Source: Alphaproteobacteria bacterium (GTDB lineage Bacteria; Pseudomonadota; Alphaproteobacteria; Rs-D84). From it: a stretch of DNA of 64,000 nt. Within the stretch, counting starts at the first letter, position 1. The number at the start of each line of letters is the position of its first letter. The DNA is taken from contig SUUN01000001.1 of NCBI GenBank assembly GCA_015062495.1, positions 19,881 to 83,880 on the forward strand, given 5' to 3'. Below, in pieces: positions 20,232 through 41,107 of the stretch. The notes under the pieces were generated by a model that searched no databases, was not told where the DNA came from, and saw nothing but the letters and a program-made list of their open reading frames with translations. The position numbers and the translations under genes are program-made.

Positions 20232-20972
20232 TTATTGTTGCCCCGCATAACTGCATGGGCTGTCCAATTCGAACGAACCAATATCGTCCCAGTATGTGCC
20301 CGCAGGCATAATGCATGCGGTTATTTTTATTGCGCCGATTCCAGTTGTAGTGCCATATGCGGGTGTTTTTTTATCGTCGCTATAATGACCCGAAATTTCG
20401 GGGCATCGTACGCATTTGTCGGAATCCATATAATATCCAATGTCGCAACCGCATGCAGACCAGGTATTCAGGTCGGGGGTGGTCGAATTGGCGATTGTGC
20501 ATTTTGTGCATGTGTTATAGTATTTATAATATCCCGCCTTGCATGCGGTAAAGGTTTTTAGAGGGGGGCTTTTGGTGGCGTCGTATTCAAAATATCCGAC
20601 GTCGTTTAAACCATAATATATGGCGTCTGGCAGATAGCATTGGTCGGCATTGGTGGCGCCGATGTTGCTGGTTTTGTATGCGATTTTGTCGCGCGCCGCG
20701 TTGGTGTATAACGTGTTGTTGTCAATGGTTGCGGCGGGACATTTTTCGCATGTTTTTGTGCCATAATATCCGGTATTGCACTTTAATCCCGCTGTATTTG
20801 AACAGGTGTCGTAAGTGGTGTAATCTGTGGGGCATTTTATGCATTCGTATTCTTTGGATTGTTCTGTTTCGAAATATGGGAAATATCCATCATTGCATTC
20901 TACGCTAAAGCCCGTTGCGTCGGTTATGCCGATGCACATTATTATGCCGATAATGGTGGCTGTGATTTTCAT
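20232..20972 (-). CDS. Secreted Cys-rich protein (GCC2/GCC3 / ephrin-receptor-like repeats)
   Basis: Signal peptide; CxxGYY..CxxCP repeats; C-terminal ITACIMPAG..D.GSF..C.Y module. Confidence 0.85.
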   Translation of the reverse strand: MKITATIIGIIMCIGITDATGFSVECNDGYFPYFETEQSKEYECIKCPTDYTTYDTCSNTAGLKCNTGYYGTKTCEKCPAATIDNNTLYTNAARDKIAYKTSNIGATNADQCYLPDAIYYGLNDVGYFEYDATKSPPLKTFTACKAGYYKYYNTCTKCTIANSTTPDLNTWSACGCDIGYYMDSDKCVRCPEISGHYSDDKKTPAYGTTTGIGAIKITACIMPAGTYWDDIGSFELDSPCSYAGQQ

Positions 20973-20998
20973 GTGTCGTCCCCCCGTGGTTGGTTGTT

Positions 20999-21237
20999 AA
21001 ACAAAACCACCAAAAAACTGTATGGTGGTCGGGGTGTTAGAAAAATCATGAAAAAGAGTGATCCCGTCGGCCTTTGGGGCGAAACGCCCCTGTGGTATAA
21101 CCGACGGCACCCCGACAATACGACGGGAAAGACACAAACAATTTTGTGTTTGCGTGTATATGGATTACAGTATTTGTTATCATACCGCTTTTTCATAGGC
21201 TTTTCTAAGGCCCCGAATACACATCCCTGTATATTCA
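20999..21237 (-). promoter_or_regulatory. Structured leader/attenuator copy L4 (long type)
   Basis: Promoter TTGCAC-17-TATACT. Sense strand contains ACAGGGATG, TTCGGGGCCTTAGAAAA, GTCGGGGTG and TTTTCTAACACCCCGAC. Terminator ACCACCA..TGGTGGT-TTTGTTT. Confidence 0.8.
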
Positions 21238-21338
21238 TAAGTAAGTATAATTTATAAAAAGCCCCAGTGCAATTACTTTGCTAAATAAATGTTTAGCAAA
21301 GTAAATACGGAATAAAAAATCCCCCAAACGGGGGATTT

Positions 21339-23552
21339 TTATTCGGAATAGTGGCAGTTTTCGCCATATTCCCAATTGCCGGTGTCATCGGATTCCGAAT
21401 AGCCCGCCGGGATAAAGCAATCGGTGATGGCGGCTGGGGTGTTGGTGGCTTGATCAAATGTTGTATGGGCAACAAATCCGCCCGATGTTGGGCACAGTTC
21501 TGCGCCTGCACCAATCCAATAGGTGGCGGTGCTTCTGTTTGAACCATCAAAAATTATATTTACTGCATCGGCGATGGTATATGTCCCGCCCGGGCAATAA
21601 TATCCATTTGGGCATGGAAAACATGGTTGTAGCCAAGAACCATATGTACTTGTGTTAAGCGCGGCAAAAGTTCCGGGTTGGCATGTGATTGCTGCGGATG
21701 ATACATAACATGATGAACTGCTGCCCATATTCCCGGGACATATAGCGCAAGAAGCGGTCCCAGCCCTGCCAAATGTATTGTAATATGCCCCTTCGGTATA
21801 TACACCGTTGGTTGGCAGTGTTACGGTGCATGGCAGGCATGCATCCACCGATGTTGCGCCGGTTGTGCTGTTATATGTGCCCGCGGGACATGGATACATG
21901 CCGAACATGCCAACCGTTTCGAAAAATTGTGAAACACCGGGGCAATAATATCCCTTGGGACAGGTGTCGCATTTGGCGTCGGTGGTAGAGTTTGATTTGT
22001 AAAAATACGTTCCGGCGGCACAGGTTGTGACGCTGGTGGCGGCGACACAGGTGTTGCCACTTTTTACATATCCATCGTCACAGGTAAAGTATAAGGTTGT
22101 GCCACAATCGCATCCGGACGAGCATGAATAACAGTCGCTTTTGCTGTCTGAACCGGTGGGTGAAGTTCCCGTGTCGCAAATATAATAACAGTCATGTGCA
22201 TTGTCGGGACATGTGGCGGTTTTTTGCATGGTTGAATATCCGCAACTTTTCCGTCCCTGAAAGGTATCGCCACCAACGGTGTATGTTACGCCGGGACAGT
22301 AATAGCCCGCATCACATTCATCGCAACTTTCGCTGCCATCATAATAGTATTTGCCGGCGGGGCATGTGCCGGTTGTTGGCTCGGTTTCGTCGGCTGTCCA
22401 ATTGGCATAGTATGTTTTGTTGCCGGTTGTGCTGGTTGAAATGCTTGTTGCCTTGGTTGAACCGGTGGATGTTGTGTACCAACCATCAAATGTATAGCCC
22501 GAACAAGATGCCGGGGTTGGCAATGTGACTGGCAGGCTGGATGCCGTATATGTTGTCGGGGTCAGGCCGGATACCGAACATGACGATGGTGCGCCAGACT
22601 GTTTGGAATATGTGATGGTGTACGATGTTTCAACAGCCTGGCATGCAGTAGAAGTTGTTGTCGTAGAACCGCCCGCCAGACCTGTTGTTGTATAGCCAGA
22701 ATTACATGTACACGATGTTGCCGTTGCTGATGATGCAGATGAATTGCTGGGGCAAGTTTTACATGTGCCACTGGACAGAAATTGAGTTGTACTGGTACAC
22801 GATGTGTATGTCTTTGTGCCATCGTCGGTATCGTAAGTAAAAGCACCCGTACTATCTGTGCCATATGCTGTGCCACCGGCTGGTATGCTGCATGCGGCAC
22901 TGGATGTTGCGCCCGTGGATGATGTTGTGGTGTAAAATGGTGATTGATAGGCGTTTGTTGTGTACAGCAGGTTTCCTTCGTCATCTTCTGCCTGGGGACA
23001 ACGAGTACATCCATAATAATTACTGGACGTGCCTATTATTAGGTTTCTGTAATAGCCCTTGGCACAGGTAAGTGTTGAACCCGAGCATGTCGCATAAGAA
23101 CCAGATGATGGACATGGTGCGCATATGTTGTTATATTTATAATAGCCAGAGTTACAGGTGAATGTTGAACTATTGCCACCCGGACATGTTGCATTGTCGG
23201 GACATTTGGTACAGCCAGATGTTCCAGACGAGTTCGCCGTACCGTAATAACCACTGGCACATTTATATGTTGGGGCCCCCAAGGAACACGAACATTGAAA
23301 TTTTGTAGTGCCATTACAGAAATAGCCCGGTTCATTTACGGTGGTTGCCACATAGCCGCCAAGTGTAGTGGTTGTCGTTACGCAAGTGTTGCAGAAATCA
23401 TCGTTGCAATAATAATCATCAGGGGTCGCGTTTGGGCAACCGCTTAGTCCCGCATTCGCACCCGTTAATGGATAGCAAACGGTTGATGCGCCCCATGCCG
23501 TTGTGCCAAGGCAAATTGCCAATGTGGTGAATAGTATGGAAAGTTTTTTCAT
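21339..23552 (-). CDS. Secreted Cys/Thr-rich protein with ephrin-receptor-like repeats and an InlB B-repeat (Listeria-Bacteroides repeat)
   Basis: Signal peptide AWG; many CPAGxY repeats; YTFDGWYTT...NKTYYANW B-repeat; C-terminal ITDCFIPAG..DDTGNW..C.Y. Confidence 0.85.
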   Translation of the reverse strand: MKKLSILFTTLAICLGTTAWGASTVCYPLTGANAGLSGCPNATPDDYYCNDDFCNTCVTTTTTLGGYVATTVNEPGYFCNGTTKFQCSCSLGAPTYKCASGYYGTANSSGTSGCTKCPDNATCPGGNSSTFTCNSGYYKYNNICAPCPSSGSYATCSGSTLTCAKGYYRNLIIGTSSNYYGCTRCPQAEDDEGNLLYTTNAYQSPFYTTTSSTGATSSAACSIPAGGTAYGTDSTGAFTYDTDDGTKTYTSCTSTTQFLSSGTCKTCPSNSSASSATATSCTCNSGYTTTGLAGGSTTTTSTACQAVETSYTITYSKQSGAPSSCSVSGLTPTTYTASSLPVTLPTPASCSGYTFDGWYTTSTGSTKATSISTSTTGNKTYYANWTADETEPTTGTCPAGKYYYDGSESCDECDAGYYCPGVTYTVGGDTFQGRKSCGYSTMQKTATCPDNAHDCYYICDTGTSPTGSDSKSDCYSCSSGCDCGTTLYFTCDDGYVKSGNTCVAATSVTTCAAGTYFYKSNSTTDAKCDTCPKGYYCPGVSQFFETVGMFGMYPCPAGTYNSTTGATSVDACLPCTVTLPTNGVYTEGAYYNTFGRAGTASCAICPGNMGSSSSCYVSSAAITCQPGTFAALNTSTYGSWLQPCFPCPNGYYCPGGTYTIADAVNIIFDGSNRSTATYWIGAGAELCPTSGGFVAHTTFDQATNTPAAITDCFIPAGYSESDDTGNWEYGENCHYSE

Positions 23553-23582
23553 CTCTTTTAACCCTCGTGTTTTTTTTGTTGT

Positions 23583-23829
23583 AAAACATGGCCACCAAAT
23601 GTGGTGGTTGGGTCATCAGAAAAATTATGAAAAAGAACATCAACGACGGTGTATAAAATCAACCGTGTGATTTTTTATAATCAACAACATTCCCCCGATA
23701 AGCACGTCGGGGCAAAATACAAACGTTCGCATGCGCGTAACGATTGCGTGTGTGGATTCCAGTACTTGTTATCATACCGCTTTTTCATAGGCTTTTCTAA
23801 GGCCCTGAATGCATGTCCCCATGCACTCG
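23583..23829 (-). promoter_or_regulatory. Structured leader/attenuator copy L5 (long type, weaker terminator)
   Basis: Promoter TTGTTT-17-TATACT. A 40-nt block (23766-23805) is identical to L4 (21174-21213). CCCCGA..TCGGGG hairpin; terminator CCACCA-CATT-TGGTGG. Confidence 0.75.
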
Positions 23830-23889
23830 GTATTCAGTATAATTTATAAAATGGATAAAAACAAGGGTAAAAATTACCCTTGTTATCTT

Positions 23890-25059
23890 TTATTTGTTTT
23901 CCAGGATTGCAATGCCGGGCAGGGTGCGACCTTCGATAAATTCCAGGAATGCGCCACCGCCGGTGGATACATATGTTATATCGCCTTTTACCCCACATGC
24001 GGACAGGGCTGCGACCGTGTCTCCACCGCCGACGATACTGGTTAATTTGCCGGCGCGGGTTTGTTCGGCAATCGCGCGCGCCAATGCAAATGATCCGTAT
24101 GACCATGTTGGTGACCATTCCGCCATGCCAACTGTGCCGTTCCAGATTACTGTTTTCGCGTTGCGAATGGCCGCAACGTCGCGTTCGGTGGTCTGGATGC
24201 CGGCATCAATAATTACGTCGTCATCTTCGATTTGTGTAAAGTCTTTGTTGGTGCGGGCGGCGTCGCGTTCAAATGTTTTTGCGACCCCCTTGTCCAATGG
24301 TAATAATACATCGCAGTTGTTCTGTTTGGCGTATTCCAAAATTTCCAGGGCGGTGTCACGCTGGTCCGCTTCGTACAGGGAATTACCAACACGGCCGCCG
24401 GTTGCATAGTTGAACGTTGTGCCCAATGCACCGCCGATAATTAAGGTGTCGGACAGTTTGGCCAGGGCCTTTAATACGCCGATTTTGGTGGAAACCTTGC
24501 TGCCGGCGACAATGGATAATAATGGGCGTGATGGGTTTTCCATAACTGCGGTCAGGTGTTCAATTTCAGATGCCAACAATTTCCCCGCATATGACGGCAG
24601 GATTTCTGCCACACCAACAGTACTGGCGTGGGCGCGGTGTGATACCGCAAATGCATCGTTTACAAATATATCAAATCCCCGTGCCAGGTCGGCGGAAAAC
24701 GCAGGGTCGTTGGATTCTTCGCCTGCATAAAAGCGCACATTTTCCAGTAATACCACGTCGCCGTCGTGCATTTCGGTCATAAATGATTTATCCAGACAAT
24801 CAGGGATTAATTTAATTCCCATATAATCTGCGATTGGTTGCAGGGTGTATTCCATATTACGCGCACCCCGTGGGCGACCGCGGTGGGCAACAATCGCGAT
24901 GCGCGCGCCCAACGCACGCAGGGCGTTGATGGTTGGCATACTTTCGTCAATTCTGAACGGTTCGGTAATTGTGCCGTCTACGATTTGTACGTTAAAGTCG
25001 TCGCGCAGTAATACATATTTACCGCGTAAATCCAGATTTTCAATTGTGCGAAGTTTCAT
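23890..25059 (-). CDS. pgk: Phosphoglycerate kinase
   Basis: DFNV, AHRGRP, LLENVRF, NDAFAVSHRAHAS and STGGGAFLE motifs. Confidence 0.98.
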   Translation of the reverse strand: MKLRTIENLDLRGKYVLLRDDFNVQIVDGTITEPFRIDESMPTINALRALGARIAIVAHRGRPRGARNMEYTLQPIADYMGIKLIPDCLDKSFMTEMHDGDVVLLENVRFYAGEESNDPAFSADLARGFDIFVNDAFAVSHRAHASTVGVAEILPSYAGKLLASEIEHLTAVMENPSRPLLSIVAGSKVSTKIGVLKALAKLSDTLIIGGALGTTFNYATGGRVGNSLYEADQRDTALEILEYAKQNNCDVLLPLDKGVAKTFERDAARTNKDFTQIEDDDVIIDAGIQTTERDVAAIRNAKTVIWNGTVGMAEWSPTWSYGSFALARAIAEQTRAGKLTSIVGGGDTVAALSACGVKGDITYVSTGGGAFLEFIEGRTLPGIAILENK

Positions 25060-25666
25060 TCTTTATCCTTTCCTTAATCGGGCCAAAACTTTTTCGATAA
25101 TGTTCATTTATACCATATTGGTCAATCGCCTGCAAATGTGATTTCGTGGGGTATCCTGCGTTTTTGTCCCAGCCGTATTGGGGAAAACGCGTGGATAGGT
25201 CGTGCATTGTGCGGTCACGTGTTTCCTTGGCAATAATGGATGCGGCGGCGATTGATAATGATTTTGCGTCGCCACGGACGACGGCTGTGCCGACTAAATC
25301 GCGCGGCAATCTGTTCCCGTCGATTAAACAGTGGTCGGGCTTTGAATTTAATTTATCAATTGCACGCTTCATGGCGGTCATAGATGCCCACAGTATATTT
25401 AATTCGTCGATTTCAGCCGGACTGCATTCGGCAACCGCCCAGATTGTGTTCTGGGTTATCCAGTCGTATGCACGGGCGCGCATGGATGCGGTCATCTGTT
25501 TTGAATCGCGGATTATAACGGGAATTTCAATGTCATAGCGTGGGAAAATTACCGCCGCCGCCACAACCGGCCCACACAGGGGGCCACGGCCCGCTTCGTC
25601 CACGCCGGCAACCAATTTTGCACCACATGCGATTTCTAATGAAAAGTCAGGTGTTTGTATACTCAT
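25040..25666 (-). CDS. rnhB: Ribonuclease HII
   Basis: GVDEAGRGPLCGPVVAAAV, DSK, DGN and AAASIIAKETRD motifs. Start MSIQTP at 25666; overlaps the pgk start. Confidence 0.97.
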   Translation of the reverse strand: MSIQTPDFSLEIACGAKLVAGVDEAGRGPLCGPVVAAAVIFPRYDIEIPVIIRDSKQMTASMRARAYDWITQNTIWAVAECSPAEIDELNILWASMTAMKRAIDKLNSKPDHCLIDGNRLPRDLVGTAVVRGDAKSLSIAAASIIAKETRDRTMHDLSTRFPQYGWDKNAGYPTKSHLQAIDQYGINEHYRKSFGPIKERIKNETSHN

Positions 25667-25795
25667 GCCTGGAACAATAGCAAGAAACGCGCAGAAAATA
25701 AAATACTTTTTTGTTGACAAAAATAGCGTTTTGGAATATTGTCGTAGGCAATATAAAAAGCAGATTGATAACAATCAAAAACAAAGGTAAATATA

Positions 25796-26092
25796 ATGAC
25801 GCCAAAGCAAGAACTGATTAAATCAACAGAAGAATTGATAAAAAAATCGCAGGACAGTGAACGTGTGTCCCGGGTGGTTGGATATGGTGGTGTTGCAATT
25901 GGTGGTGCATGTATGTTGGCTGCAATTGCGATGGCAATTCGGGAAAATTATGATTGGACAGTAATTAATGGTTTGGTTGGGGCGTTGAACCTGTATCTGG
26001 GGGGCGCAAATATTCAGCGTGCCAAGACGTGCCGTGGTAATATTCAAAAACTGATTAAGTCAAAGCAGGAATTGGAAAAAATTAAATGGTAG
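25796..26092 (+). CDS. Small membrane protein (2 TM)
   Basis: Two hydrophobic Gly-rich helices; stop codon overlaps the start of the next radical SAM gene. Confidence 0.75.
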   Translation: MTPKQELIKSTEELIKKSQDSERVSRVVGYGGVAIGGACMLAAIAMAIRENYDWTVINGLVGALNLYLGGANIQRAKTCRGNIQKLIKSKQELEKIKW

Positions 26093-27117: not shown

Positions 27118-27150
27118 AACCCGCAGTTGCGGGTTTTATTTTTTTTTGGT

Positions 27151-27741: not shown

Positions 27742-28383
27742 ATGATTTACGGCTATATACGTGTGTCAACAGACCATCAAACAACAGAAAACCAGCGTTT
27801 CGAAATCAAGCGTTTTTGCGAAAAACAAGATCTGGTCATAGATTGCTGGATAGAAGAGACGATTTCATCAACCAAGGATTTGAGCAAGCGAAAATTGGGA
27901 CGATTGCTGCGCCGGATTCAAAAAGATGACCTGATTATTGCGTCTGAATTGTCGCGATTGGGGCGTAATTTATTGCAAGTAATGAGTATTTTGCATCATT
28001 GTATGGATGTTGGGGCAAAAATCTGGACGATTAAGGATAATTACAGGCTGGGGGCTGATATTACGTCCAAAGTGTTGGCGTTTGCGTTCGGGTTGTCTGC
28101 GGAAATTGAACGAAATCTGATTTCGCAACGAACCAAAGAAGCGATTGCGCGTGTCAGGGCCGAAGGAAAACGTGTGGGACGGCCGCTGGGCAGTCGCAAT
28201 ACATATAAATTAGAGGGGCGCGAAAGATACATATCGCAAAAATTAGGTGATGGGCGTTCACGGTATGAAATCGCACGACGTCTGCGGGTGCATCGTGATA
28301 CATTGGCCCGGTTTATCGAAGACCGAGAAATTCAGCCAGAATGTAGTGTCGAACAAAACCAAACGCCGGTCTTAAAACTGTAA
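27742..28383 (+). CDS. mpi: Serine recombinase of the Mpi (master DNA invertase) family
   Basis: MIYGYIRVSTDHQTTENQRFEI, SELSRLGRNL, WTIKDNYRLG.DI.SKVLAFAFGLSAEIERNLISQRTKEA match the Bacteroides Mpi pattern closely. C-terminal HTH. Confidence 0.85.
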   Translation: MIYGYIRVSTDHQTTENQRFEIKRFCEKQDLVIDCWIEETISSTKDLSKRKLGRLLRRIQKDDLIIASELSRLGRNLLQVMSILHHCMDVGAKIWTIKDNYRLGADITSKVLAFAFGLSAEIERNLISQRTKEAIARVRAEGKRVGRPLGSRNTYKLEGRERYISQKLGDGRSRYEIARRLRVHRDTLARFIEDREIQPECSVEQNQTPVLKL

Positions 28384-30213
28384 TTTGGTTTTTGCCAGGA
28401 CGTAAATTTCATCTGTGCCAAATGGATTATCAACAAATCCAGCGGTCATGAATTTATATGATGCAGATATCTCGACAGATGGGCGGGTTGCCATGTCAAT
28501 AGTATGGTTTGCGAATGTGTATTCGCCATTAACGCGACGACCAGTTGGTGTGCGCAGGTACATGTTGCCGCCAATGATTGTGTCGGGTGTGCCAATAGTG
28601 AATGTCCAATTATTATGTTTTACACCCATGGTAATAGAACCGGTCATAATGTCTGAAAAGCCATTAATCATAGATTCTGTGGATGCGGTTGGGTTCATTG
28701 TGCCAATTGTTGTGCGACCAAATAATGTTGTGTTGCCCAATTGGACTTCATTGTTTAACCCAATAAAAGTAATTGTATTTTGTGAATCTGTGGCCAGGAA
28801 TCCATCACTGCTTAATAATTCGCTGTTTTTAAAGCCAAATTCGATGTTGCCAAAATGCATACGTGTTTCGTTGTTGTCGCGCAGACGTTCAAAACCAATA
28901 CCGCGATTCTTGATTTCGATATTATCGTTCAGGTTTGTGTTAAATGCGCGACCATAGCTGTCAACAAATGCGAATTTAATATTTTCTGATTTTACATTGT
29001 GTGCAATCGTGCCCGACATGCGTGCGGTCTGTAATGGTACGGTTGTGCCATTGGCCAAAGGTACTAGTTCTGCGCCAACTGGGCGGGTTGCGCGTTCCAG
29101 GTCCAACATGCCGTGTCCATATACATTATCAACGCCCACTGCGCCAATATCGCGCGCGGTTTCGAACAATAATGCGGTAATTTGATTGGATTTTAGGTAT
29201 GGAAAGGCTTCGCGAATGACGGAAATTGCGGCGGATACGATTGGGGCTGCAAAACTGGTGCCGTCGATGATTTCGTCTGATGCGGGGGCGTTAATATTAC
29301 TGCCGGGGGCGGTAATACAATAGTTTTTTGTTATTCCACATTGATTGCTGTAATATGCCAATTCGCCGGTTTCGCTGTCCCAGGCAACAACATTTACAAA
29401 GTGACCGTTCAGTTCAGGTACGTGCAGCGGTAATGCCGACATGGCACTGGATTGGCTGTTGCCATCGTTGCCAGCCGCCCAAACAAATATAGCGTCGTTT
29501 TTTTTGGTTGCGTCTGTTAATGCGCCAATAAAGTTTCGGTCTGTTAATTGTTCCATGTGATAGCGGGAATAAACCTGGTTGGCAAAGATGTCCATAGACC
29601 AACTGAAATTATAAATGTTCGCGCCGTCCGATGTGGCGGTTCGGATTGTATTGCCAATTTTATTAAATGAATCAAAGTCGCGGTGTGAACGCGCAACGGT
29701 GTAAATGTTTACGTCTGCATCAGGGGCAATTGTTCCACCCGCCAGGGCCGCGACATTTGCGCCGTGTGATGTGGTGTTGTCTGAATCAAATACCGCAACA
29801 TATGAATTTTTACCTGTGTATCCACGGGCCAATGAATATGCAACACGAATGTCGTTATATTGACTGGCGTTATTATTGTAGTTCGTTGTATTAAATATAG
29901 ATGCCAGGTGAACAGAATCTACGTCGCCACCAACCATTGTATAGGTTGGCAGGGTGGGGCGGGATGTGCCGTCAGAACCGCTGTCGGATGAAGACGCGCC
30001 AAATAATGCGATTGCACCACCAATCAATGCCGCAGCCCCCGATGCAACGCCGACGGTTGTTGCAAATGAAAAACCGTCGCCAGCCAAATCGGATGCGCAT
30101 TTGTCTGGGTTATAACGGCGATACATTGCGTTGTCGCAATTGTTGGCCACGGCCGGTGCGCAACACAGTGCGGCCGATAAAAAGGCAACAAATATATTCT
30201 TGTACGTCGTCAT
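28372..30213 (-). CDS. S8 (subtilisin-like) serine peptidase with C-terminal beta-rich region (autotransporter-like)
   Basis: Catalytic triad VAVFD, HGANVA, GTSFAAP; oxyanion AAGND; terminal Phe (TKLQF). Start MTTYKN at 30213. Confidence 0.9.
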   Translation of the reverse strand: MTTYKNIFVAFLSAALCCAPAVANNCDNAMYRRYNPDKCASDLAGDGFSFATTVGVASGAAALIGGAIALFGASSSDSGSDGTSRPTLPTYTMVGGDVDSVHLASIFNTTNYNNNASQYNDIRVAYSLARGYTGKNSYVAVFDSDNTTSHGANVAALAGGTIAPDADVNIYTVARSHRDFDSFNKIGNTIRTATSDGANIYNFSWSMDIFANQVYSRYHMEQLTDRNFIGALTDATKKNDAIFVWAAGNDGNSQSSAMSALPLHVPELNGHFVNVVAWDSETGELAYYSNQCGITKNYCITAPGSNINAPASDEIIDGTSFAAPIVSAAISVIREAFPYLKSNQITALLFETARDIGAVGVDNVYGHGMLDLERATRPVGAELVPLANGTTVPLQTARMSGTIAHNVKSENIKFAFVDSYGRAFNTNLNDNIEIKNRGIGFERLRDNNETRMHFGNIEFGFKNSELLSSDGFLATDSQNTITFIGLNNEVQLGNTTLFGRTTIGTMNPTASTESMINGFSDIMTGSITMGVKHNNWTFTIGTPDTIIGGNMYLRTPTGRRVNGEYTFANHTIDMATRPSVEISASYKFMTAGFVDNPFGTDEIYVLAKTKLQF

Positions 30214-30364
30214 GTTTTTCCTTTTGTTCCCGTGTGGACAACCCACACACTATTAATATAGTACAAAGCCTTTGTTTGTCAATGCGAAATGCGGTTTTTT
30301 TCTTATGCGGGATGATGATGATTTTTTTATATTTTTACTTGATTTTTTGATTGGTTTTGGTTAT

Positions 30365-32518: not shown

Positions 32519-32583
32519 TAAAAAATCCCCCGTTTGGGGGATTTTTATTTGAATTTTTTTTATCTTTATATTATAATCTGCCT

Positions 32584-32839
32584 TGAACCAACAGGGATGT
32601 TGGGTCAGGGACGTAAGAAATCCTTTATCATTGCGATGTTCTTTGGGGCATTGAATCCGACTTTGGCAAAATAAATAAACCAGGGCGCGGATGCGCTTTT
32701 TATTTTGCAAAAATTCGCCCGATTTTTGTCGGGGGGTCCGTGGCTATACAACAGCGCATACGCGTAAAGGCCACGGAGGTCATTCAATGATATGATTTTC
32801 TTAACCCCCTGACCGTCATTTCCATGACGGTTTTTGTTT
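32584..32839 (+). promoter_or_regulatory. Structured leader/attenuator copy L6 (long type)
   Basis: Promoter TTGAAT-17-TATAAT (32549-32577). ACAGGGATG (32591), TCAGGGACGTAAGAAA (32605), GTCGGGGGGT (32728), TTTCTTAACCCCCTGAC (32797). Terminator ACCGTCA..TGACGGT-TTTT. Confidence 0.8.
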
Positions 32840-32864
32840 AATTAAACGAAAAAGGGAAAAGAAA

Positions 32865-34529
32865 ATGAAAAAACACTTTATTTTAACTTCGTTGGTTGCA
32901 ATTGCCATGTCTTGCCCAGCCGTGGCGGCAACAGATGTTACATTCAGTGGTATGTATAACGGTGACGCATCAAAGATTGCCGATGGTGTTGCAGATACGA
33001 CATATGATTACGTAAAATCAGACGGTACAACAGCGTCGGGTGTTGCGTATGATGCAAACCCGGTGTTGACCGATTTTACATATCAGGATGTTGATGGGGC
33101 AATCAAAAGCCTGGCCGACGGAACGCCAGATATATCGGTATATACCGGCACAACAACCGCGTCGGGCGATATCGTGAGCACACAGACAGTCGCCGCAGGG
33201 GAAACAGCAAGCCGTGATAATTACACCTATAAAAACGGTGCGGGTGAAGTTGTAACACTGGGCGAAAATGCACAGGATATGGTTGCAACGCATACTCTGT
33301 CCGATTATGCAGGTGGTGCAGTTGCCACGATTACAAATGGTACATCTGATACAGCAATTGATGGTTCAATGTATTCGTTTGAATATGAAGGTCAAACCTT
33401 AAAATTATCATCGGATGGGACACAATATACACTGAATGGTATCCCCCAGGAAGAACCAACCTCAGGCGCATTGTTTGATTTGTTGACAGAAGTTCGTGGT
33501 GCATTTGATAACGATAAGACAGCAATTGAAAATGCAAAAACCACAACAGCTGATAATTGGACAACAGAACAAACCAACTTTGACGCAGCAAATGATGTGT
33601 TTGTCGCAGATAGCAATAAAATTGCGGAACTGAATGGTTATTTCGAAACTGTTGGTGCTGCAACTGATGCGTTGGAAGCAGCCAAGACAGCCCAACAGGT
33701 GGCGGCAGATAAATACGCAGAAAACGGTGCATTGTTCCAGGCGGCGAAAGACGTCTATGATGCGCCAATTCTGGAAACAATCACAAATGGTGCGAATGAA
33801 GCAATTGATGACGCGTTGGCCGAAGGTGGTGCAATCCGTTCTGAATTGGATGTAAACGCAACAGCAATTGCAGACAATAAAACTGCAATTGAAACTAACG
33901 CTGCGAATATTGAAGTAAACGCGACAAATATTGCTGCAAATAAAACTGCAATTGAAACTAATGCTGCGAATATTGAAGTAAACGCGACAGCAATTGCAGA
34001 CAATAAAACTGCAATTGAAACTAATGCTGCGAATATTGAAGTAAACGCGACAAATATTGCTGCAAATAAAACTGCAATTGAATCCGAAGTTGCACGCGCA
34101 ACAGCGGCTGAAATCGAATTGGATGGAAAAATTGCCCAAAATACATCAGCAATTGAAGAAGAAGTTGCAAATCGTATCGCGGGTGATGAAATGACATTGG
34201 CATCGGCCAAGGCATATGTCGATTCCAAGAACGAATTGGCATTAAAGTCTGCATATGATTATACAGACAGCAAGGTTGACGCATTGGAAGATGAACTGTC
34301 GGCCGGTATTGCCAGTGCCGCGGCGATGTCTTCGGTTGCGGTGTCTGGCGTAGGCAAGGGTGAAGTGTCTGTTGGTGGTGGCTATGGCTATTACAACAGT
34401 CAATCCGCGATTGCATTGGGTGCGGCGATGGGGCTGACCGATAACTGGTCTGTGAATGCAGCGGCCGGTTTGGCAGATTCAAATGTCACATTCCGTGCAG
34501 GAACAAATTACAAGTTCAAATTGTTTTAG
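32865..34529 (+). CDS. Trimeric autotransporter adhesin (YadA-like C-terminal anchor)
   Basis: Signal peptide; coiled-coil stalk; anchor AGIASAAAM..SVGGGYGYYNSQSAIALG..RAGTNYKFKLF. Confidence 0.9.
   Translation: MKKHFILTSLVAIAMSCPAVAATDVTFSGMYNGDASKIADGVADTTYDYVKSDGTTASGVAYDANPVLTDFTYQDVDGAIKSLADGTPDISVYTGTTTASGDIVSTQTVAAGETASRDNYTYKNGAGEVVTLGENAQDMVATHTLSDYAGGAVATITNGTSDTAIDGSMYSFEYEGQTLKLSSDGTQYTLNGIPQEEPTSGALFDLLTEVRGAFDNDKTAIENAKTTTADNWTTEQTNFDAANDVFVADSNKIAELNGYFETVGAATDALEAAKTAQQVAADKYAENGALFQAAKDVYDAPILETITNGANEAIDDALAEGGAIRSELDVNATAIADNKTAIETNAANIEVNATNIAANKTAIETNAANIEVNATAIADNKTAIETNAANIEVNATNIAANKTAIESEVARATAAEIELDGKIAQNTSAIEEEVANRIAGDEMTLASAKAYVDSKNELALKSAYDYTDSKVDALEDELSAGIASAAAMSSVAVSGVGKGEVSVGGGYGYYNSQSAIALGAAMGLTDNWSVNAAAGLADSNVTFRAGTNYKFKLF
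33852..34082 (+). repeat. Coding tandem repeat, 63-bp unit x about 3.7 (126-bp higher-order repeat)
   Basis: VNATAIADNKTAIETNAANIE alternating with VNATNIAANKTAIETNAANIE. Confidence 0.9.
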
Positions 34530-34607: not shown

Positions 34608-34777
34608 CGTCATTCCCGCTTGGTTTCACCCACGCAAACATTTGTTTGCGCAGGGCCCGGGGCGGGAATCCACTGCGTCGCAGACATTTTTATGCAGTCC
34701 CTGCGGGGCAATAGATACCTGCCTGGTATCACCCACAAAAATTTTCAATTTTTGCGGGGCCCGAAGCGGGTATGACG
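34608..34777. repeat. REP/RPE-like palindromic element with nested inserts
   Basis: CGTCATTCCCGC..GCGGGAATCCA ... GATACCTGC..GCGGGTATGACG. Each arm holds a TGGT(T/A)TCACCCAC-hairpin-GGGCCC insert. Confidence 0.75.
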
Positions 34778-34855
34778 ATTTTATTTTTTTACTTAAATAA
34801 ACTTTTATTTATCTAAGTAATTGAATTTATAACAACTATAGCGTATAATTGTTTT

Positions 34856-35085
34856 GTTGCCGGGTGTTCCGGTGATGGGGTGTCGAAACCCTTGCTCTAA
34901 GCGTCTGTGATATTAATTGCACGCCGGGTGGCGTGTTTTTATGCTGTGGACGAGAATTTATAACTCCTGGTCTTTGCTGGTCAGGAGGGTTGTGAATAAT
35001 GCGCGCCTTGTGCGCAAAATAAGCACACAATTCTTAGAGATTGTTTCGAACCTCCTGACCGTCTGATTATTGACGGTTTTTTATT
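34856..35085 (+). promoter_or_regulatory. Structured leader/attenuator copy L7 (compact-type core)
   Basis: Promoter TTGAAT-17-TATAAT (34821-34849). GGGGTGTCGAAAC (34877), CTCCTGGTC (34964), GGTCAGGAGGGTT (34979), GTTTCGAACCTCCTGACC (35043). Terminator ACCGTC..GACGGT-TTTTT. Confidence 0.8.
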
Positions 35086-35111
35086 AACAAAATTAAACAG
35101 GAGTTTGAACA

Positions 35112-35822
35112 ATGAAAAAAATTTTAATACCAATATTTTTATTTGCACCAATGGTTGCAAATGCGGCGACGACGGCTGTGTGTGTGTCGACAACGTGTCC
35201 GTCTTCTTCGTCCACGGCAACAATTTATGATTTGCCGGACCCGGGATGTGGTACATATACAACGAAATGTCTAAGGCGTCAGGTAGGTACATCTGGTCTT
35301 ACATCAGATTATGTATATCTGCGGTACAAAGATTGCACCGCTTGCAAAAGTGCTGCTACAATGGTAACCCAAAATATATCAACTGGAACTAATCTTATTA
35401 GGTATCAGCAGGCGTGTGGTGAAACAACGTCGATGACGACGCGAAATGAGTGTTCATGTGGAACGCAATGTGATTCTGCGTACTGTTTGATTATGTGGAC
35501 GCCTTGGTCCACGGTCAAGACGGGGTATCAAGAACGCACCAAGTCGGCGTGTAATGCATCAACGAATTGTGCATGCGCTGTTGTGGAAAGAGAGGTTCGA
35601 TGTGCCGCGGGATACTATGGTACTGCCAGTTATGGTATGCTTGCCGATGGTACATATGGGTATTCCGGTTGTTCACGATGTCCATCATCGGGTGGGGTCT
35701 ATGGCACAAGTGTTGCGGGCAGTACCGCGATAACATCATGCTATATACCCGCGGGTGATATATCGTGGACCGATAATACAGGCACCTATGTATGTGGTGA
35801 AGATTCTTTTTATGTAAAATAA
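35112..35822 (+). CDS. Secreted Cys-rich protein
   Basis: Signal peptide ANA; CAAGYYGTAS..SGCSRCP; C-terminal AITSCYIPAG..DNTGTY module. Confidence 0.85.
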   Translation: MKKILIPIFLFAPMVANAATTAVCVSTTCPSSSSTATIYDLPDPGCGTYTTKCLRRQVGTSGLTSDYVYLRYKDCTACKSAATMVTQNISTGTNLIRYQQACGETTSMTTRNECSCGTQCDSAYCLIMWTPWSTVKTGYQERTKSACNASTNCACAVVEREVRCAAGYYGTASYGMLADGTYGYSGCSRCPSSGGVYGTSVAGSTAITSCYIPAGDISWTDNTGTYVCGEDSFYVK

Positions 35823-35846
35823 AATGGGGGTGTCCCCCCAGTTTTG

Positions 35847-38615
35847 TTATTTGCCCCATGTGGTGCCAATTGTAAATTCGGCCACCAATGGAATGGATAA
35901 CTGGGTTATATTTTCCATGGCGAATTTTATTTTGTGCGCGAATTCATCGGCAAATTCAGATTTACATTCAAATACGATTTCATCGTGCACCTGCATAATC
36001 ATGCGGATTTTGTCGGCATTGGGGTGCATGATATTTTTATCAATTTCAACCATGGCGCGCCGCATCAGGTCGGCTTCGAATCCCTGGATTGGGGCGTTGA
36101 TGGCCGCACGCATTGCATAGGCGCGCATGCGCGGATTTTTGACGTCTGGTAATTCAATTCGCCGTCCCCATGGGGTGTACACACAGGCGTTTGCCAATGC
36201 AAATTCTTTGGTTTTATCAATATATTCCCGAATTTCGGGCAGGCCAGCCATATATGTGTTTATGATATTTTGCGCATCCCCACGCGATACACCCAGTTGC
36301 GACGCTAGACCAAACGATGATATCCCATAAATAATGGAAAAGTTCACGGTTTTTGCCGCGCGGCGTAAATCACGTGGGACCGGTTGGTCGGTGGGGATAT
36401 TAAATATCTTGCGCGCGGTTTGTTCGTGGATGTCTGCGTTATTATTAAATGTTTCTTTGAATGTGTGGACGTTTGCCATGTCCGCCAACAGGCGCAACTG
36501 AATCTGGGAATAGTCAACTGATATCAGCGTATGGCCCGGGGCGGCGATAAAGCATTTGCGGATTTCTTCGCCCAGTTCGGTTTTAATCGGTATGTTTTGC
36601 AGGTTCGGATCGCGACTGGACAGGCGGCCGGTGTTGGTGCTGGTCTGTAAATAGGTGGTGTGGATGCGACCGTCGGATGCAATTTGGCGCGGCAATGCGT
36701 CTGCGTATGTGCCAGCCAGTTTTGCGATTGAACGCCAATTTAGTATTTTTTCAATGATTTCGTGCGCGTCGATTAAATCGTTTAATGCATCGGCGTCGGT
36801 GGAACGCTTTTTATTCGCGGGCAGGTTCAGTTCATCGAATAAAACGCAGCCCAGTTGTTTGGGACTGGCGATATTAAATTCGTGGCCGGCCAATGTCCAG
36901 ATTTCAGATTGTAATTTTCCCAGTTGTTCGTGGAATATGGCGGACAGGTGTTGCAATTTTGCCCGATCGGCCAGAACGCCAGCGCGTTCCATTTGCATTA
37001 ATATCGGCATCAGGGGTAAATCGCATGTTTCGTATAATTCGCGTAATTTGTTGTTTGCATTCAGTTCAGGACGCATTAAATCGTACAATGCGCGACAGAT
37101 ACAGGCATCTTCGGCGGCGTACAGGCATGCGTCTGCGACGGTCAGGGTGTCAAAGCGCATGTCAGCGTCGCGGGTTTTGGGCGGAAACAGGGATGAAAAT
37201 TTTATGTTTTCGTGCCCCAGGTACATTAATGCCAATTCATCCAGCCCGTGGCCGTGGCGCGTGCCGTGCAAGGCATATGACAACAGCATTGTGTCGTCGA
37301 TTGGGCGAATTAGTGTTGTATCCCAACCCTCGTTAGCCATAATATGTAAATCATATTTCAGGTTATGACCAATTTTTATAATGTCTGGGTTTGTTAGTAT
37401 GGGCCACAATTTTTCCCGTACAATTTCAATTGGGATTTGATTTGGCGCGATATTGTCACCCCCAAACAGGTCGGGTGTGCCACACCGATGACGGATTGGG
37501 ATATATGCCCCATGTGTGTCGTCAATCGCCAATGATATGCCGACGATTTTATCGGATATATGATTTAAACCGGTTGTTTCGGTGTCAATTGCCAATATTT
37601 TATCGATACGTCCCAGATATTTTTCCAGTGCTGATACGGTTGTAATTGTTTCGCATTTGATTTCGCGTTTTTTTGCAGGCGCGGGGGCAGGGGACGCGTC
37701 GGGTACATCACACGCGTTGCCGGGAAACGAAAATTCAGTTGCAGCGGGTGAATTTTGTTCGACTGGAAACAGTTTTTCGATTTTTGCAATCAGCGAATTG
37801 CTTTCGATATTTTTGCGAATAAATTCCAGTGCGCCCGGTGTGTTAAATCGAAATGGGGTAATCGTTAATCCCGATAAATCGACATCTGTCTTTAATGTGA
37901 CCAGTTGTTTGGAAATGTACGCCATTTCACGGTTGTCGCGCAACAGACCGCGAATGCGTTCGTTTTGAACCGCGTCCAGGTTTGCATACAGGTTGTCCAG
38001 GCTGCCGAACTGGTTGATAAGTTCCGCCGCCTTTTTCGGGCCAATACCGGGCACGCCGGGAACGTTATCGGACGAATCGCCCATCAGGGATTGAACGTCG
38101 ATAACCTGGTGCGGTTTGACACCGAATTTTTCCAGGACGGCGTCTTCGTGGATTTCGCGATTTTTCATGCCGTCGTATAAAAAGACGCAGTCGGATACCA
38201 GTTGCATCAGGTCTTTGTCACTGGTGATAATTCGGGTGGCGTTTGTTGATGTACAGTTTTGGTGCGCCAGGGTGGCGATTACATCGTCGGCTTCGACCCC
38301 GGGAACGCACAAGACCGGCATTCCCAATGACATCAGGCCAGATTGAATCATTTGGCCCTGGGCGATTAAGTCCGCCGGTGTGGCCGCGCGGTTCATTTTG
38401 TATTCGGGGTATATATCCTGGCGAAATGTGATGCGGGATGCGTCGAATACGCATATAAATGCATCGTCGGGTTTTGCGGATGCCAATATGGGTAAAATCA
38501 TATTGAAAAATCCGTACACTGCACCGGTCGGTGTGCCGTCGGCACGGGTCAGGCGACTGTGCACGCCATAGTAGGCACGAAACAAAAGCGAATTTCCGTC
38601 AATCAGTGTCAGCAT
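35847..38615 (-). CDS. polA: DNA polymerase I
   Basis: IDGNSLLFRAY 5'-3' exonuclease; IDTETTGL 3'-5' exonuclease; DYSQIQLR, AKTVNFSIIYG and QVHDE polymerase motifs. Confidence 0.98.
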   Translation of the reverse strand: MLTLIDGNSLLFRAYYGVHSRLTRADGTPTGAVYGFFNMILPILASAKPDDAFICVFDASRITFRQDIYPEYKMNRAATPADLIAQGQMIQSGLMSLGMPVLCVPGVEADDVIATLAHQNCTSTNATRIITSDKDLMQLVSDCVFLYDGMKNREIHEDAVLEKFGVKPHQVIDVQSLMGDSSDNVPGVPGIGPKKAAELINQFGSLDNLYANLDAVQNERIRGLLRDNREMAYISKQLVTLKTDVDLSGLTITPFRFNTPGALEFIRKNIESNSLIAKIEKLFPVEQNSPAATEFSFPGNACDVPDASPAPAPAKKREIKCETITTVSALEKYLGRIDKILAIDTETTGLNHISDKIVGISLAIDDTHGAYIPIRHRCGTPDLFGGDNIAPNQIPIEIVREKLWPILTNPDIIKIGHNLKYDLHIMANEGWDTTLIRPIDDTMLLSYALHGTRHGHGLDELALMYLGHENIKFSSLFPPKTRDADMRFDTLTVADACLYAAEDACICRALYDLMRPELNANNKLRELYETCDLPLMPILMQMERAGVLADRAKLQHLSAIFHEQLGKLQSEIWTLAGHEFNIASPKQLGCVLFDELNLPANKKRSTDADALNDLIDAHEIIEKILNWRSIAKLAGTYADALPRQIASDGRIHTTYLQTSTNTGRLSSRDPNLQNIPIKTELGEEIRKCFIAAPGHTLISVDYSQIQLRLLADMANVHTFKETFNNNADIHEQTARKIFNIPTDQPVPRDLRRAAKTVNFSIIYGISSFGLASQLGVSRGDAQNIINTYMAGLPEIREYIDKTKEFALANACVYTPWGRRIELPDVKNPRMRAYAMRAAINAPIQGFEADLMRRAMVEIDKNIMHPNADKIRMIMQVHDEIVFECKSEFADEFAHKIKFAMENITQLSIPLVAEFTIGTTWGK

Positions 38616-38669
38616 ATAATTTTTCCCCAGGTTGTTAGTTTGGGGGGCAAATGCCCCCCCGATTGTTAT

Positions 38670-39221
38670 TTAAAAGACATAACGCAGTTTTACGCGACCT
38701 TCGTATTGTAACAGGTCTGGTTCTGTGTCTGTTGCTTTGAAAATGTCTGGGGCGTACAGGACGCGACCTTCGACGTCGATGTTAAATGGAATTACCGGTA
38801 TGTCCAGTGTGATTCCCAACATGCCCTGGTATACCAAGGTATCTTCGATATCAATTGTGGCCAGATTTTTGGGTTCGTATTTGCTGTCGAATGTAGAGCC
38901 AATACCAACGCCGATGTATGGTTTTACAATTGGGGTGGGTAATTTAAAGTACGCATTAACCAACCCCAGGTTTGCGGTTATGGCATCTGCGTCCAGATAG
39001 TTGTATTCCAATTCAACGCGGAACAATGGAATATCCATACCCAGAACCGCACCATATGATTGTGATGATTTAGAAATATCGTTGTCGTCTGCGAACAGGG
39101 TATAACCACCAATGCCGTATGTTGCGCCGGCATAGATATCAAACAGCATATTTGCGTTCGCCGCGCCCGCGGACATCATAATTGTGGTCGCAGTTAAAAT
39201 AGCAAAAGATTTTATGTTCAT
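38670..39221 (-). CDS. Small outer-membrane beta-barrel protein (OmpA/Opa-like, about 8 strands)
   Basis: Signal peptide; FRVELEYNY and KPYIGVGIG strands; terminal LRYVF. Confidence 0.85.
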   Translation of the reverse strand: MNIKSFAILTATTIMMSAGAANANMLFDIYAGATYGIGGYTLFADDNDISKSSQSYGAVLGMDIPLFRVELEYNYLDADAITANLGLVNAYFKLPTPIVKPYIGVGIGSTFDSKYEPKNLATIDIEDTLVYQGMLGITLDIPVIPFNIDVEGRVLYAPDIFKATDTEPDLLQYEGRVKLRYVF

Positions 39222-39267
39222 GTTTTCTCCTTTCTGTGATAGTATAATAAAAAAAAGAGTGGTAAAT

Positions 39268-39789
39268 ATGCAAGAAAATAAACCTTGTTTAGTCGTTGGA
39301 TTGGGGAATCCCGGGGCGCAGTATGCGAATACGCGTCATAATGTTGGTTTTATGGCGGTTGATTACCTGGCGGGGGTGGGGGCGACGTGGAAAAATGAAA
39401 AAGACGCGCTAACCACGCGTGCGGAAATTGATGGGCGACGCGTGATTTTTGTAAAACCCCAGACGTTTATGAACAACAGTGGTGTGGCGGTTGGGGCATT
39501 GATGACATTTTATAAAATACCGTTGGAAAATTTGATTGTAATTCATGATGATATGGATATTACGGTTGGTGATTGCCGCGAAAAAATCGGCGGGGGCAGT
39601 GCCGGACACAATGGTATTCGTTCGATTGATGCGCACGTTGGACGCGATTATCGTCGGATTCGTATTGGAATTGGACATCCGCGTGACTTTGATTTGCCGA
39701 TAGATCCGGCGGATTGGGTTCTGGGGAAATTTGGTACGGCGCAGTTGGTTTTGATTGACAGTGCAATTGGCAAAATAAAATTGTGGTAG
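39268..39789 (+). CDS. pth: Peptidyl-tRNA hydrolase
   Basis: VGLGNPGAQYANTRHNVGF, KPQTFMNNSG, HDD and AGHNGIRSI motifs. Start at 39268. Confidence 0.97.
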   Translation: MQENKPCLVVGLGNPGAQYANTRHNVGFMAVDYLAGVGATWKNEKDALTTRAEIDGRRVIFVKPQTFMNNSGVAVGALMTFYKIPLENLIVIHDDMDITVGDCREKIGGGSAGHNGIRSIDAHVGRDYRRIRIGIGHPRDFDLPIDPADWVLGKFGTAQLVLIDSAIGKIKLW

Positions 39790-39823
39790 TTGATAAAATA
39801 AATCCCGGTTGTCCCGGGATTTA

Positions 39824-41107
39824 TTAGTTGTTTCCACCGTGATAATATATTTTTGTTGTTCCGGGTAATGTAAATTCATTATCGGCTGCGTCCAAAATTA
39901 TTGTTGTGCCCCCAACCATATAGCATTGGGTTATTGCGGTTGATTTAGCGTCGGATGTCGAACCCGCGGGGCATTCGTTGTCTGTACTGATATCTGGACA
40001 GTAATAGCCCGCCGGACATTCGGCCCATTGGGCGGTTAATGTCATATCGTTGCCACCAGATATATCGTTGATGTCTGTGTTCGGGGATATTATGGTGTTG
40101 CTGTCATTGCAACCGGATGTGCATTTCCAGCCATTGAATAAATAACCGTTGTATGTACAGCCATTTGGTATATTGGGGGCAGAACATTTTTTGCCGTATG
40201 TACAGGATGGTGGGTTCGCGGGTTGGCATGTCGTGCCCGCGTCGCCAACCTGATATGTTATCTTAAATGATTTAGCGGACCATTGGGCCTTTAATTCAAT
40301 ATCGGTGGTATATGTATACTGAAATGTGCCACCCGCCGGCGTGATGTCCAAGGGAAGCGCATCATTTTTCCAACCTGTTAATGTATGACCCGTATTGCTG
40401 AATGTTTGGTCACCCAGGGTGGTGACAGTTGAGTCGTAACTGACGTTTTTCTGTGTTGTTGTTTGGTCTGTTCCGTTATTGGCGCGATATGTTATGGTGT
40501 ATGTGTTTATTACGCAATCGTCCCCATTTGCGACCGTGTCGCTGTTTGTGCCACCAATGATGTGATAATTCGGCCGGCAGTCACAGCCCAGGCCGTTACT
40601 GCTGGTTGTTGAGTTTGCGCCGCATCGGGCACAGGCTTTGTCTGTATTGATAGCGCTGTTGATATCGCCCCATGTTCCATTTATTGTGTATCCGGATTCC
40701 CTGGTGCCGTAATAATATATACCCTGTAATGCATTGTTTTTTGATGAACAGGCGTTGCACCCCCACCCCCAGGAGTTACCATTAGTAAATGCCTGGGCGG
40801 CTTTGCATTGTGCTGTAAATGCGCATGCGTCTTGGGATGTTTGGCCGGTTGAGGTCTTTGACCATTCGGTGTTAGAGTTGGCGTCCCATGTGCCACAGGA
40901 AAAGCAAGCAGTTGCGTTTTCGCCAAGCGTACCATCATTATATGTTCCGACAGGACACTTGGCACATGAAGTCAAATGTGTTTGCCAATAGCACCCGGGG
41001 GTGGTGTTGCAAGTTGCCTTTGACAGGGTTGTGCAATCTGTATCAGCGGCATGTGCCACGCACGCGCAGAATGTTAATAAAAATGCAGTGGTAATAAATT
41101 TCCTCAT
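39824..41107 (-). CDS. Secreted Cys-rich protein with two InlB B-repeats
   Basis: Signal MRKFITTAFLL..AHA (start 41107); CPVGTY and CPAGYYC repeats; GHTLTGWK..LKAQW and GYLFNGWK..LTAQW; C-terminal AITQCY. Confidence 0.85.
   Translation of the reverse strand: MRKFITTAFLLTFCACVAHAADTDCTTLSKATCNTTPGCYWQTHLTSCAKCPVGTYNDGTLGENATACFSCGTWDANSNTEWSKTSTGQTSQDACAFTAQCKAAQAFTNGNSWGWGCNACSSKNNALQGIYYYGTRESGYTINGTWGDINSAINTDKACARCGANSTTSSNGLGCDCRPNYHIIGGTNSDTVANGDDCVINTYTITYRANNGTDQTTTQKNVSYDSTVTTLGDQTFSNTGHTLTGWKNDALPLDITPAGGTFQYTYTTDIELKAQWSAKSFKITYQVGDAGTTCQPANPPSCTYGKKCSAPNIPNGCTYNGYLFNGWKCTSGCNDSNTIISPNTDINDISGGNDMTLTAQWAECPAGYYCPDISTDNECPAGSTSDAKSTAITQCYMVGGTTIILDAADNEFTLPGTTKIYYHGGNN

Follow-up and report, generated by a model that had tools for sequence, protein, structure and literature searches.

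Cysteine-rich exported proteins in the window

The window analyzed here is a 64,000-nucleotide stretch (C1:19881-83880) of the 0.9-Mb genome (G000; three contigs, 45% G+C) of an alphaproteobacterium of the order Rs-D84. Surrounded by housekeeping genes (PGK, RNase HII, and PolA), and with an S8 subtilase, a YadA-anchor protein, and a small outer-membrane protein encoded nearby, lie five genes for exported, cysteine-rich proteins, P0001 to P0005. Three of these proteins end in the same C-terminal module, hereafter the tail, and a fourth ends in what profile comparison indicates to be a divergent homologue. A previous sequence-only reading of this DNA had grouped the five proteins into one family and had taken the terminal module for a sorting or anchoring domain. 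We find that the module is real, far beyond chance, and that it is a distinct terminal domain carried on largely unrelated bodies; its role as a docking or co-assembly handle is a tentative reading.

Translation confirms the four complete genes, each encoding a cysteine-rich protein with a Sec signal: P0001 (20232 to 20972, minus strand; 246 amino acids), P0002 (21339 to 23552, minus strand; 737 amino acids), P0003 (35112 to 35822, plus strand; 236 amino acids), and P0004 (39824 to 41107, minus strand; 427 amino acids). P0005 (2 to 577, minus strand) is cut by the window edge. Read from the genome, its full open reading frame (ORF) comprises 265 amino acids with the C terminus ...KNCKITDK and has no tail module. 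All five proteins carry Sec-type N-terminal signals and have a cysteine content of 6 to 8%. As the sequence-only reading had stated, they have no transmembrane anchor: none contains a hydrophobic segment beyond the signal peptide (19-residue Kyte-Doolittle mean of ≤1.02), and no Pfam barrel model matches. Scans of P0001 to P0005 against Pfam and NCBIfam recognized nothing except Flg_new (the Listeria-Bacteroides repeat, PF09479/TIGR02543), which accounts for the InlB B-repeats previously noted in two proteins. It is found in P0002 (40.6 bits; residues 311 to 383, about 22404 to 22622 on the minus strand) and in P0004 (two repeats; 36.4 bits against a 27-bit cut-off) and is not matched in P0001, P0003, or P0005.

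Extent and terminal position of the tail

A hidden Markov model (HMM) of the tail was seeded with 15 C termini and iterated against all six reading frames of the genome with a threshold of E <1e-3. It was used instead of an earlier regular-expression motif search, which returned 16 matches including noise and was too insensitive. The HMM detects 23 copies in the 0.9-Mb genome, 21 of which end 0 to 2 residues before a stop codon; the remaining two lie internally, with 60 to 100 more cysteine-rich residues after them. The conserved unit comprises about 65 residues, exceeding the 26 to 30 residues originally outlined, and reads C..GYY(G)...C.RCPSSGGVYGT.....ITSCYIPxGT..D.TG.F.[YF]T..CYY[ST][NE], followed by the stop codon. 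The smallest member (C2:112889-113164) consists of a signal peptide and the module and nothing more.

P0001, P0002, and P0003 are among the 21 terminal copies (tail HMM E values of 3e-11 to 9e-14). The module of P0001 (20235 to 20447, minus strand; CDIGYY...CVRCP...ITACIMPAGTYWDDIGSFELDSPCSYAGQQ) matches with an E value of 3.2e-11 and ends 2 residues before the stop codon, its terminal hairpin lying at 20235 to 20324. In P0002, the module (21342 to 21500, minus strand; ELCPTSGGF...ITDCFIPAGYSESDDTGNWEYGENCHYSE; E value of 9e-14) ends at the last residue, with the hairpin at 21342 to 21428. P0003 carries a canonical tail (35598 to 35819, plus strand; RCAAGYYG...CSRCPSSGGVYGTS...ITSCYIPAGDISWTDNTGTYVCGEDSFYVK; terminal hairpin at 35730 to 35819) in a variant form whose last cysteine is shifted (TYVCGEDSFYVK). 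The tail of P0004 (39827 to 40021, minus strand; ECPAGYYCP...ITQCYMVGGTTIILDAADNEFTLPGTTKIYYHGGNN) is not matched by the canonical HMM. Profile-profile comparison with hhalign pairs it with the canonical tail (probability of 94.7%, E value of 5.9e-8), and it is, on this sequence comparison, a divergent homologue. The P0004 type was seen only in P0004 orthologues and one paralogue. The view that all four complete genes share the terminal module thus holds for P0001 to P0003, whereas P0004 belongs only as a distant relative.

The module had also been described as recurring internally in P0001 and P0002. P0002 does hold a degenerate internal copy (residues about 163 to 245, about 22818 to 23066, minus strand), found with the 67-position profile only (E value of 8.2e-6 and 26 bits, versus 1.8e-20 and 73 bits for the terminal copy), but the DQCYLP stretch of P0001 gives no significant match to the module (i-E of 460; unreported in the later HMM round). 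Elsewhere in the genome, the module is internal in three ORFs (C1:251416-252441, minus strand; C1:430308-431492, plus strand; C1:436576-437550, plus strand). What follows these three internal modules is a different, extremely cysteine-rich extension (e.g., CCCDDTCDAKCSGGQSCVSHSDCASGSC...), which may be an alternative C-terminal module.

Distribution of the tail

When 1.84 billion representative proteins were scanned with a profile of 22 tails, 1469 matched at E ≤1e-3 and 209 at E ≤1e-10. Among the best 150 of the 1469 representatives, an HMM of the terminal hairpin ends at the last residue in 127 and within three residues of it in 139, and lies more than 8 residues from the end in 1. Loci of relatives, retrieved with six close tails as the query, give a similar picture: 48 of 58 copies abut the stop codon, and all 58 lie within 11 residues of it. 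In whole-genome searches, most of the matches listed read through exactly one stop codon (89-position model with a few extension columns). The C-terminal enrichment expected from the sequence-only reading is therefore seen in this genome, in the relatives' loci, and among the best public representatives.

Within the genus sample, the tail occurs in 97 of 121 genomes at 1 to 49 copies (median of 3), and 21 genomes have at least 20 copies; in the order sample, it occurs in 99 of 151 genomes. Five further genera of the same family give clear matches, and one genus of another family gives a single borderline match (E value of 9e-4). Overall, the tail does not extend beyond a single family of gut Alphaproteobacteria within Rs-D84, whose genomes have 0 to 49 copies each. 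The same tail is encoded in loci of metagenome-assembled genomes (Candidatus Enterousia sp. or uncultured Alphaproteobacteria) from deer and yak gut. Enterousia (order Rs-D84) are gut bacteria with genomes of <1 Mb, no respiratory chain, and few transporters (PMC12306168). Our literature searches found no description of these tail proteins. We conclude that the tail is a well-delimited new C-terminal domain family, unannotated in current databases.

Variable bodies and a conserved tail

We compared the bodies of the tail proteins within this genome after removing the signal peptide and the tail. Similarity is detectable in only 13 of 210 pairs. These bodies do not form a single family, and the tail is a distinct terminal domain on largely unrelated proteins. 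The five proteins of the window can accordingly be grouped as exported and cysteine-rich, but not as a single family: P0005 has no tail, P0004 has a variant one, and the bodies are mostly unrelated. We aligned the subfamily whose tails are most alike; its pairwise identity averages 0.04 to 0.2 along the body versus 0.4 to 0.76 in the tail. At identical residues of paralogous tails, synonymous codons agree at a frequency of 0.40, versus 0.44 expected from codon usage. Synonymous sites are saturated, which rules out recent gene conversion as the source of tail conservation and indicates old purifying selection rather than recent duplication or gene conversion.

In a domain scan, the bodies of the 150 best relatives show scattered small, disulfide-rich domains of binding type, namely Ephrin_rec_like (12 proteins), saposin B (2), and colipase, CBM14, Flg_new, and Giardia variant-specific surface protein (PF03302) domains (1 each), and no enzymes. 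The heads with animal-type domains include colipase N and C (E values of 5e-16 and 5e-6), saposin B (8e-6), and chitin-binding peritrophin-A CBM14 (1e-7); such heads may have been acquired from hosts or have arisen convergently. A crude filter for exported cysteine-rich proteins retains roughly 40 ORFs in this genome, some of them spurious. Set against these, the 23 tail copies imply that tail proteins make up more than half of the cysteine-rich secretome.

Predicted structure of the module

Ephrin_rec_like (PF07699) matches 3 of the 22 tails of this genome, at best with an E value of 2.4e-6 and 27.7 bits against a 23.1-bit cut-off. This best match is limited to residues 2 to 46, its last position being the Cys of CYIP. 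TNFR_ELAPOR1_6th matches 4 of the 22 tails, below its cut-off. For the same 22 tails, the terminal hairpin of about 25 residues is covered by no Pfam or NCBIfam model (NCBIfam to an E value of 10) and has no PDB profile match. Hence, the expectation that the module would differ from any generic known repeat is borne out for the last 25 residues, while the front half weakly resembles a known type. Foldseek places the module closest to the EphA2 cysteine-rich domain and a tumor necrosis factor receptor (TNFR; ELR1), but these best hits are nonsignificant (E value of >3, template-modeling score of about 0.4).

An AlphaFold2 (AF2) model was calculated for the mature part (72 amino acids) of the smallest member with an alignment of 78 tails. 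The mini-protein is predicted with a mean predicted local distance difference test (pLDDT) score of 78, with hairpins at residues 16 to 25 and 54 to 63 and bridges that pair C47-Y48 with C68-Y69. The model suggests an autonomous disulfide-rich mini-domain of two parts. Judged by its sequence, the front part (C..GYY...C.RCPSSGGVYGT) appears to be a weak or distant Ephrin-receptor/TNFR-type cysteine repeat. The end part (ITSCYIPxGT..D.TG.F.[YF]T..CYY[ST][NE]) is predicted to be a lineage-specific beta-hairpin with conserved Tyr/Phe residues and a disulfide between its first and last cysteines.

Natural variants support this pairing. In two relatives (L042 and L057; ITSCCIP...CCYSN), the tyrosines beside both cysteines have jointly changed to cysteine. 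Across 228 tails, HMM column 21 is Cys in 6% and column 25 is Ser in 6%; the two co-occur in the listed shifted-Cys tails, whose last cysteine has moved four positions, as in P0003. The paired Tyr-to-Cys changes and the shifted-Cys variant thus both support the pairing of C47-Y48 with C68-Y69. Full-length P0003 was modeled by AF2 with a pLDDT of 80.6; Foldseek against the PDB matched this model to no solved fold.

Leader RNA and envelope context

The genome has 19 copies of a shared structured leader RNA, and at least 10 of these lie upstream of tail genes. Within the window, copies lie 5' of P0001 (20981 to 21328, minus strand; nhmmer E value of 5e-65), P0002 (23568 to 23879, minus strand; 2e-52), and P0005 (582 to 856, minus strand; 1.7e-51). 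A diverged copy lies 5' of P0003 (34803 to 35094, plus strand; 1.8e-7). Neither nhmmer nor alignment revealed a copy upstream of P0004, in line with the previous statement that four of the five genes sit behind the leader. A strong copy (32533 to 32855) precedes the gene for a 554-amino-acid YadA-anchor protein, a trimeric autotransporter (32865 to 34529, plus strand), and another precedes the gene for a 1061-amino-acid protein ending in ...KFRGRF. The leader is also found 5' of three cytoplasmic-looking genes, putative glycosyltransferases as read from their N-terminal sequence only. That the leader is shared with envelope genes lends circumstantial support to an envelope role of the tail proteins.

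Several other genes touch on export or the envelope. The S8 subtilase (28372 to 30246, minus strand; 624 amino acids) is exported and accessory, being present in 81 of 121 genus genomes. Its C-terminal stretch of about 240 unannotated residues, ending in ...KTKLQF, possibly forms a barrel like that of autotransporters. A membrane-anchored DsbA-like oxidoreductase (CGYC; C1:9887-10744, plus strand) is encoded in this organism, which is reported to have no respiratory chain. A tripartite exporter cluster (C1:91490-97411), comprising an HlyD-type adaptor, two ABC-2 permeases, and a TolC-like OEP, is present also in a genome with 49 tails (G089) and absent from two tail-less genomes (G164 and G209). 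ORFs of 1001 amino acids (41905 to 44910, minus strand) and 143 amino acids (41182 to 41613, minus strand) adjoin P0004 and have no Pfam match.

The genome further encodes a type IVb pilus-like gene set with T2SSE, T2SSF, PilO, a secretin lipoprotein, and TcpQ (C2:221318-227021 and C2:83981-86568). A 321-amino-acid outer-membrane-like protein ending in ...LRFEF is encoded next to these genes. Of 41 genomes spanning the order, 39 have the secretin; these bacteria are described as having no flagella. Its order-wide presence rules the secretin out as a machine specific to the tail.

A candidate docking handle and its alternatives

In the interpretation that we favor, at somewhat less than an even chance, the tail serves as a shared handle for docking or co-assembly beneath variable binding heads. 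Speaking for it are the terminal position, the predicted fold, the attachment to unrelated bodies, the purifying selection, the leader shared with envelope genes, the DsbA-like oxidase, and the lack of a transmembrane segment or an NCBIfam sorting-domain match. The tail is the constant end of a large set of disulfide-rich, fast-evolving proteins and would hold their heads on a conserved envelope component, such as a surface glycan or an outer-membrane protein. Alternatively, the handle would let tail proteins co-assemble with one another. It would not be a cleavable linear export signal. A pure signal is disfavored because cargo-less mini-proteins exist, extensions are tolerated, and no linked or co-varying machinery was found, and a mere cap is disfavored because the tail is strictly conserved on unrelated bodies and is co-regulated with envelope genes.

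A number of observations weigh against a handle of this kind. The tail is absent from about 20 to 35% of the sampled genomes (genus and order samples). Sixteen of the 150 best representatives are mini-proteins of ≤125 amino acids without cargo, which is odd for an anchor, and a minority of tails carry C-terminal extensions of 6 to 220 residues. The tail proteins could also be periplasmic or fully released. Across 65 loci, no gene is conserved beside the tail genes, except one for a 134-amino-acid cysteine-rich protein beside the mini-protein. Phylogenetic profiling of the two tail-less genomes (G164 and G209) against the genome with 49 tails (G089) yielded 38 genes of this genome that are present in the latter and absent from the former, and no specific co-varying partner emerged among the candidates profiled. 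As a partner of the tail, the S8 subtilase is contradicted by its absence from 8 genomes with at least 8 tails and its presence in 8 tail-less ones. A small outer-membrane protein (C1:271461-272129) is found in 77 of 97 tail-bearing versus 4 of 21 tail-less genomes (odds ratio [OR] of 16). However, a cytoplasmic control gene (DUF2817) gives a similar OR of about 11, worked out by hand (about 34 of 97 versus 1 of 21), so the association mostly reflects shared ancestry; being no stronger than this phylogenetic control, it does not mark the protein as a specific partner.

The conserved neighbor, which always precedes the mini-protein, is itself an exported protein with about 10% cysteine (...CVNYSSSSIGWTGCC...; the pair spans C2:112889-113582, minus strand). 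The pair is kept across species in 10 syntenic loci (e.g., L062).

The first alternative to a docking handle is that the tail is a secretion or sorting tag, a folded domain read by an outer-membrane machine in the manner of type IX secretion, possibly via the type IVb pilus-like secretin. The combination of a Sec signal with diverse cargo, a conserved domain at the very C terminus, and many copies per genome would fit, and genes for a secretin lipoprotein with TcpQ, T2SSE, T2SSF, and PilO are present. However, the secretin is found almost throughout the order, whereas the tail occurs in a single family and many genomes do not have it, and no machinery gene is linked to or co-varies with the tail genes. 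Mini-proteins without cargo, internal copies followed by 60 to 220 more residues, and the lack of any match to TIGR04183 or another sorting-domain model likewise speak against a tag, and we regard this alternative as quite improbable. The original proposal of a terminal sorting or anchoring domain therefore survives in part: the tail is a distinct terminal domain on unrelated bodies, but it has neither a conserved neighbor nor a specific co-varying partner, and the mini-proteins and the few internal copies oppose a pure signal.

The tail might instead be the working part of these proteins, a small hairpin of lectin-like or ligand-binding type whose exposed aromatic face would bind a molecule of the host, food, or a partner cell, the proteins being released rather than anchored. 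Stand-alone proteins of signal peptide and tail are common, one of them in the conserved synteny described above, conserved Tyr/Phe residues alternate along the hairpin, and the tail is under purifying selection. Against this, proteins whose head is the surface of interaction usually pair a hypervariable head with a conserved tail, the heads seen here look like binding domains, and the tail has no sequence or fold match to a known carbohydrate-binding module; we consider such a role doubtful. That the tail is only a structural end-cap, the degenerate last half-repeat of a cysteine-rich array inherited by all paralogues and having no interaction of its own, seems distinctly unlikely. The weak Ephrin_rec_like/TNFR matches of the front half, the repeat-like C..P.G.[YF]...G...C spacing of the hairpin, the degenerate internal copy in P0002, and the nonsignificant top fold hits (EphA2 cysteine-rich domain and TNFR) are all consistent with a cap. 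Yet the tail sits on mutually unrelated bodies that are not repeat arrays, stands alone in mini-proteins, and reaches 49 copies in a 1-Mb genome; it is also far better conserved than the other parts, with saturated synonymous sites.

Extending the docking handle further, the tail could act as the address tag for a hitherto undescribed system of surface display in diderm Alphaproteobacteria, in which an envelope component recognizes the tail, or tails co-assemble, and up to about 50 different animal-like binding heads per 1-Mb genome form a variable coat. We hold this wider proposal to be unlikely. If the tail is a sorting or anchoring tag, a new route of protein display in Gram-negative bacteria could be defined; as a surface-display tag, it would be a functional parallel to the type IX secretion C-terminal domain or to an S-layer anchoring domain. 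At the least, it is a new domain family with 1469 representative proteins. Up to about 5% of genes (an estimate from 49 copies and roughly 900 genes) encode exported, disulfide-rich tail proteins. Enterousia and its relatives are likely to rely on contact with a host or other cells, given their genomes of less than 1 Mb, missing respiratory chain, and scarcity of transporters (PMC12306168). The docking target of the tail would reveal how these bacteria build the interface with their surroundings.

Comparison with known systems

Known C-terminal signals and anchors differ from the tail. Sortase, exosortase, and rhombosortase signals (LPXTG, PEP-CTERM, and GlyGly-CTERM) are set apart in that the tail has no transmembrane helix, ends 2 residues after C-Y-Y, and has no NCBIfam match. 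Unlike an autotransporter or beta-barrel anchor, the tail consists of 65 residues of cystine hairpins in the AF2 model and has no Pfam barrel match. Flg_new proteins share with this set the bona fide repeats of P0002 and P0004, and relatives of P0004 are publicly annotated as "InlB B-repeat-containing protein"; however, Flg_new belongs to the body rather than the tail, and only 2 of the roughly 23 tail proteins of this genome and 1 of 150 relatives contain it.

Ephrin_rec_like (PF07699, formerly GCC2_GCC3) and TNFR repeats (PF00020 and PF23091) are likewise small beta-hairpins held by disulfides with a C..G.Y...C..CP spacing, and Ephrin_rec_like is matched somewhere in the protein in 12 of 150 tail-bearing relatives. 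Only the front half of the tail matches these families, and in a minority of cases (3 of 22), whereas the Tyr-rich end hairpin with its single disulfide is unmatched. The module described here is also strictly C-terminal, bacterial, and limited to one family.

The type IX secretion C-terminal domain of Bacteroidota (Por_Secre_tail, TIGR04183) resembles the tail in its Sec signal, diverse cargo, folded domain at the extreme C terminus, and tens of copies per genome. However, TIGR04183 does not match (NCBIfam; P0001 to P0005 to an E value of 0.1 and 22 tails to an E value of 10), and no tail-associated machinery was found here, although SprA/Sov, PorK-N, PorU, and PorV were not searched for; the type IVb pilus-like set is the sole secretin-type system that came to light. 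The type IX domain is a beta-sandwich, whereas the tail is a predicted stack of cystine hairpins. The host here is an alphaproteobacterium, and the cargo consists of small disulfide-rich domains of binding type rather than enzymes.

The variant-specific surface proteins of Giardia and other cysteine-rich antigens of protists share with the tail proteins hypervariable cysteine-rich heads, a conserved C-terminal end, and large paralogous repertoires. Giardia variant-specific surface proteins are anchored by a C-terminal transmembrane helix with a CRGKA tail. In contrast, the tail proteins described here have no transmembrane segment, and their conserved end is predicted to be a folded, soluble domain.

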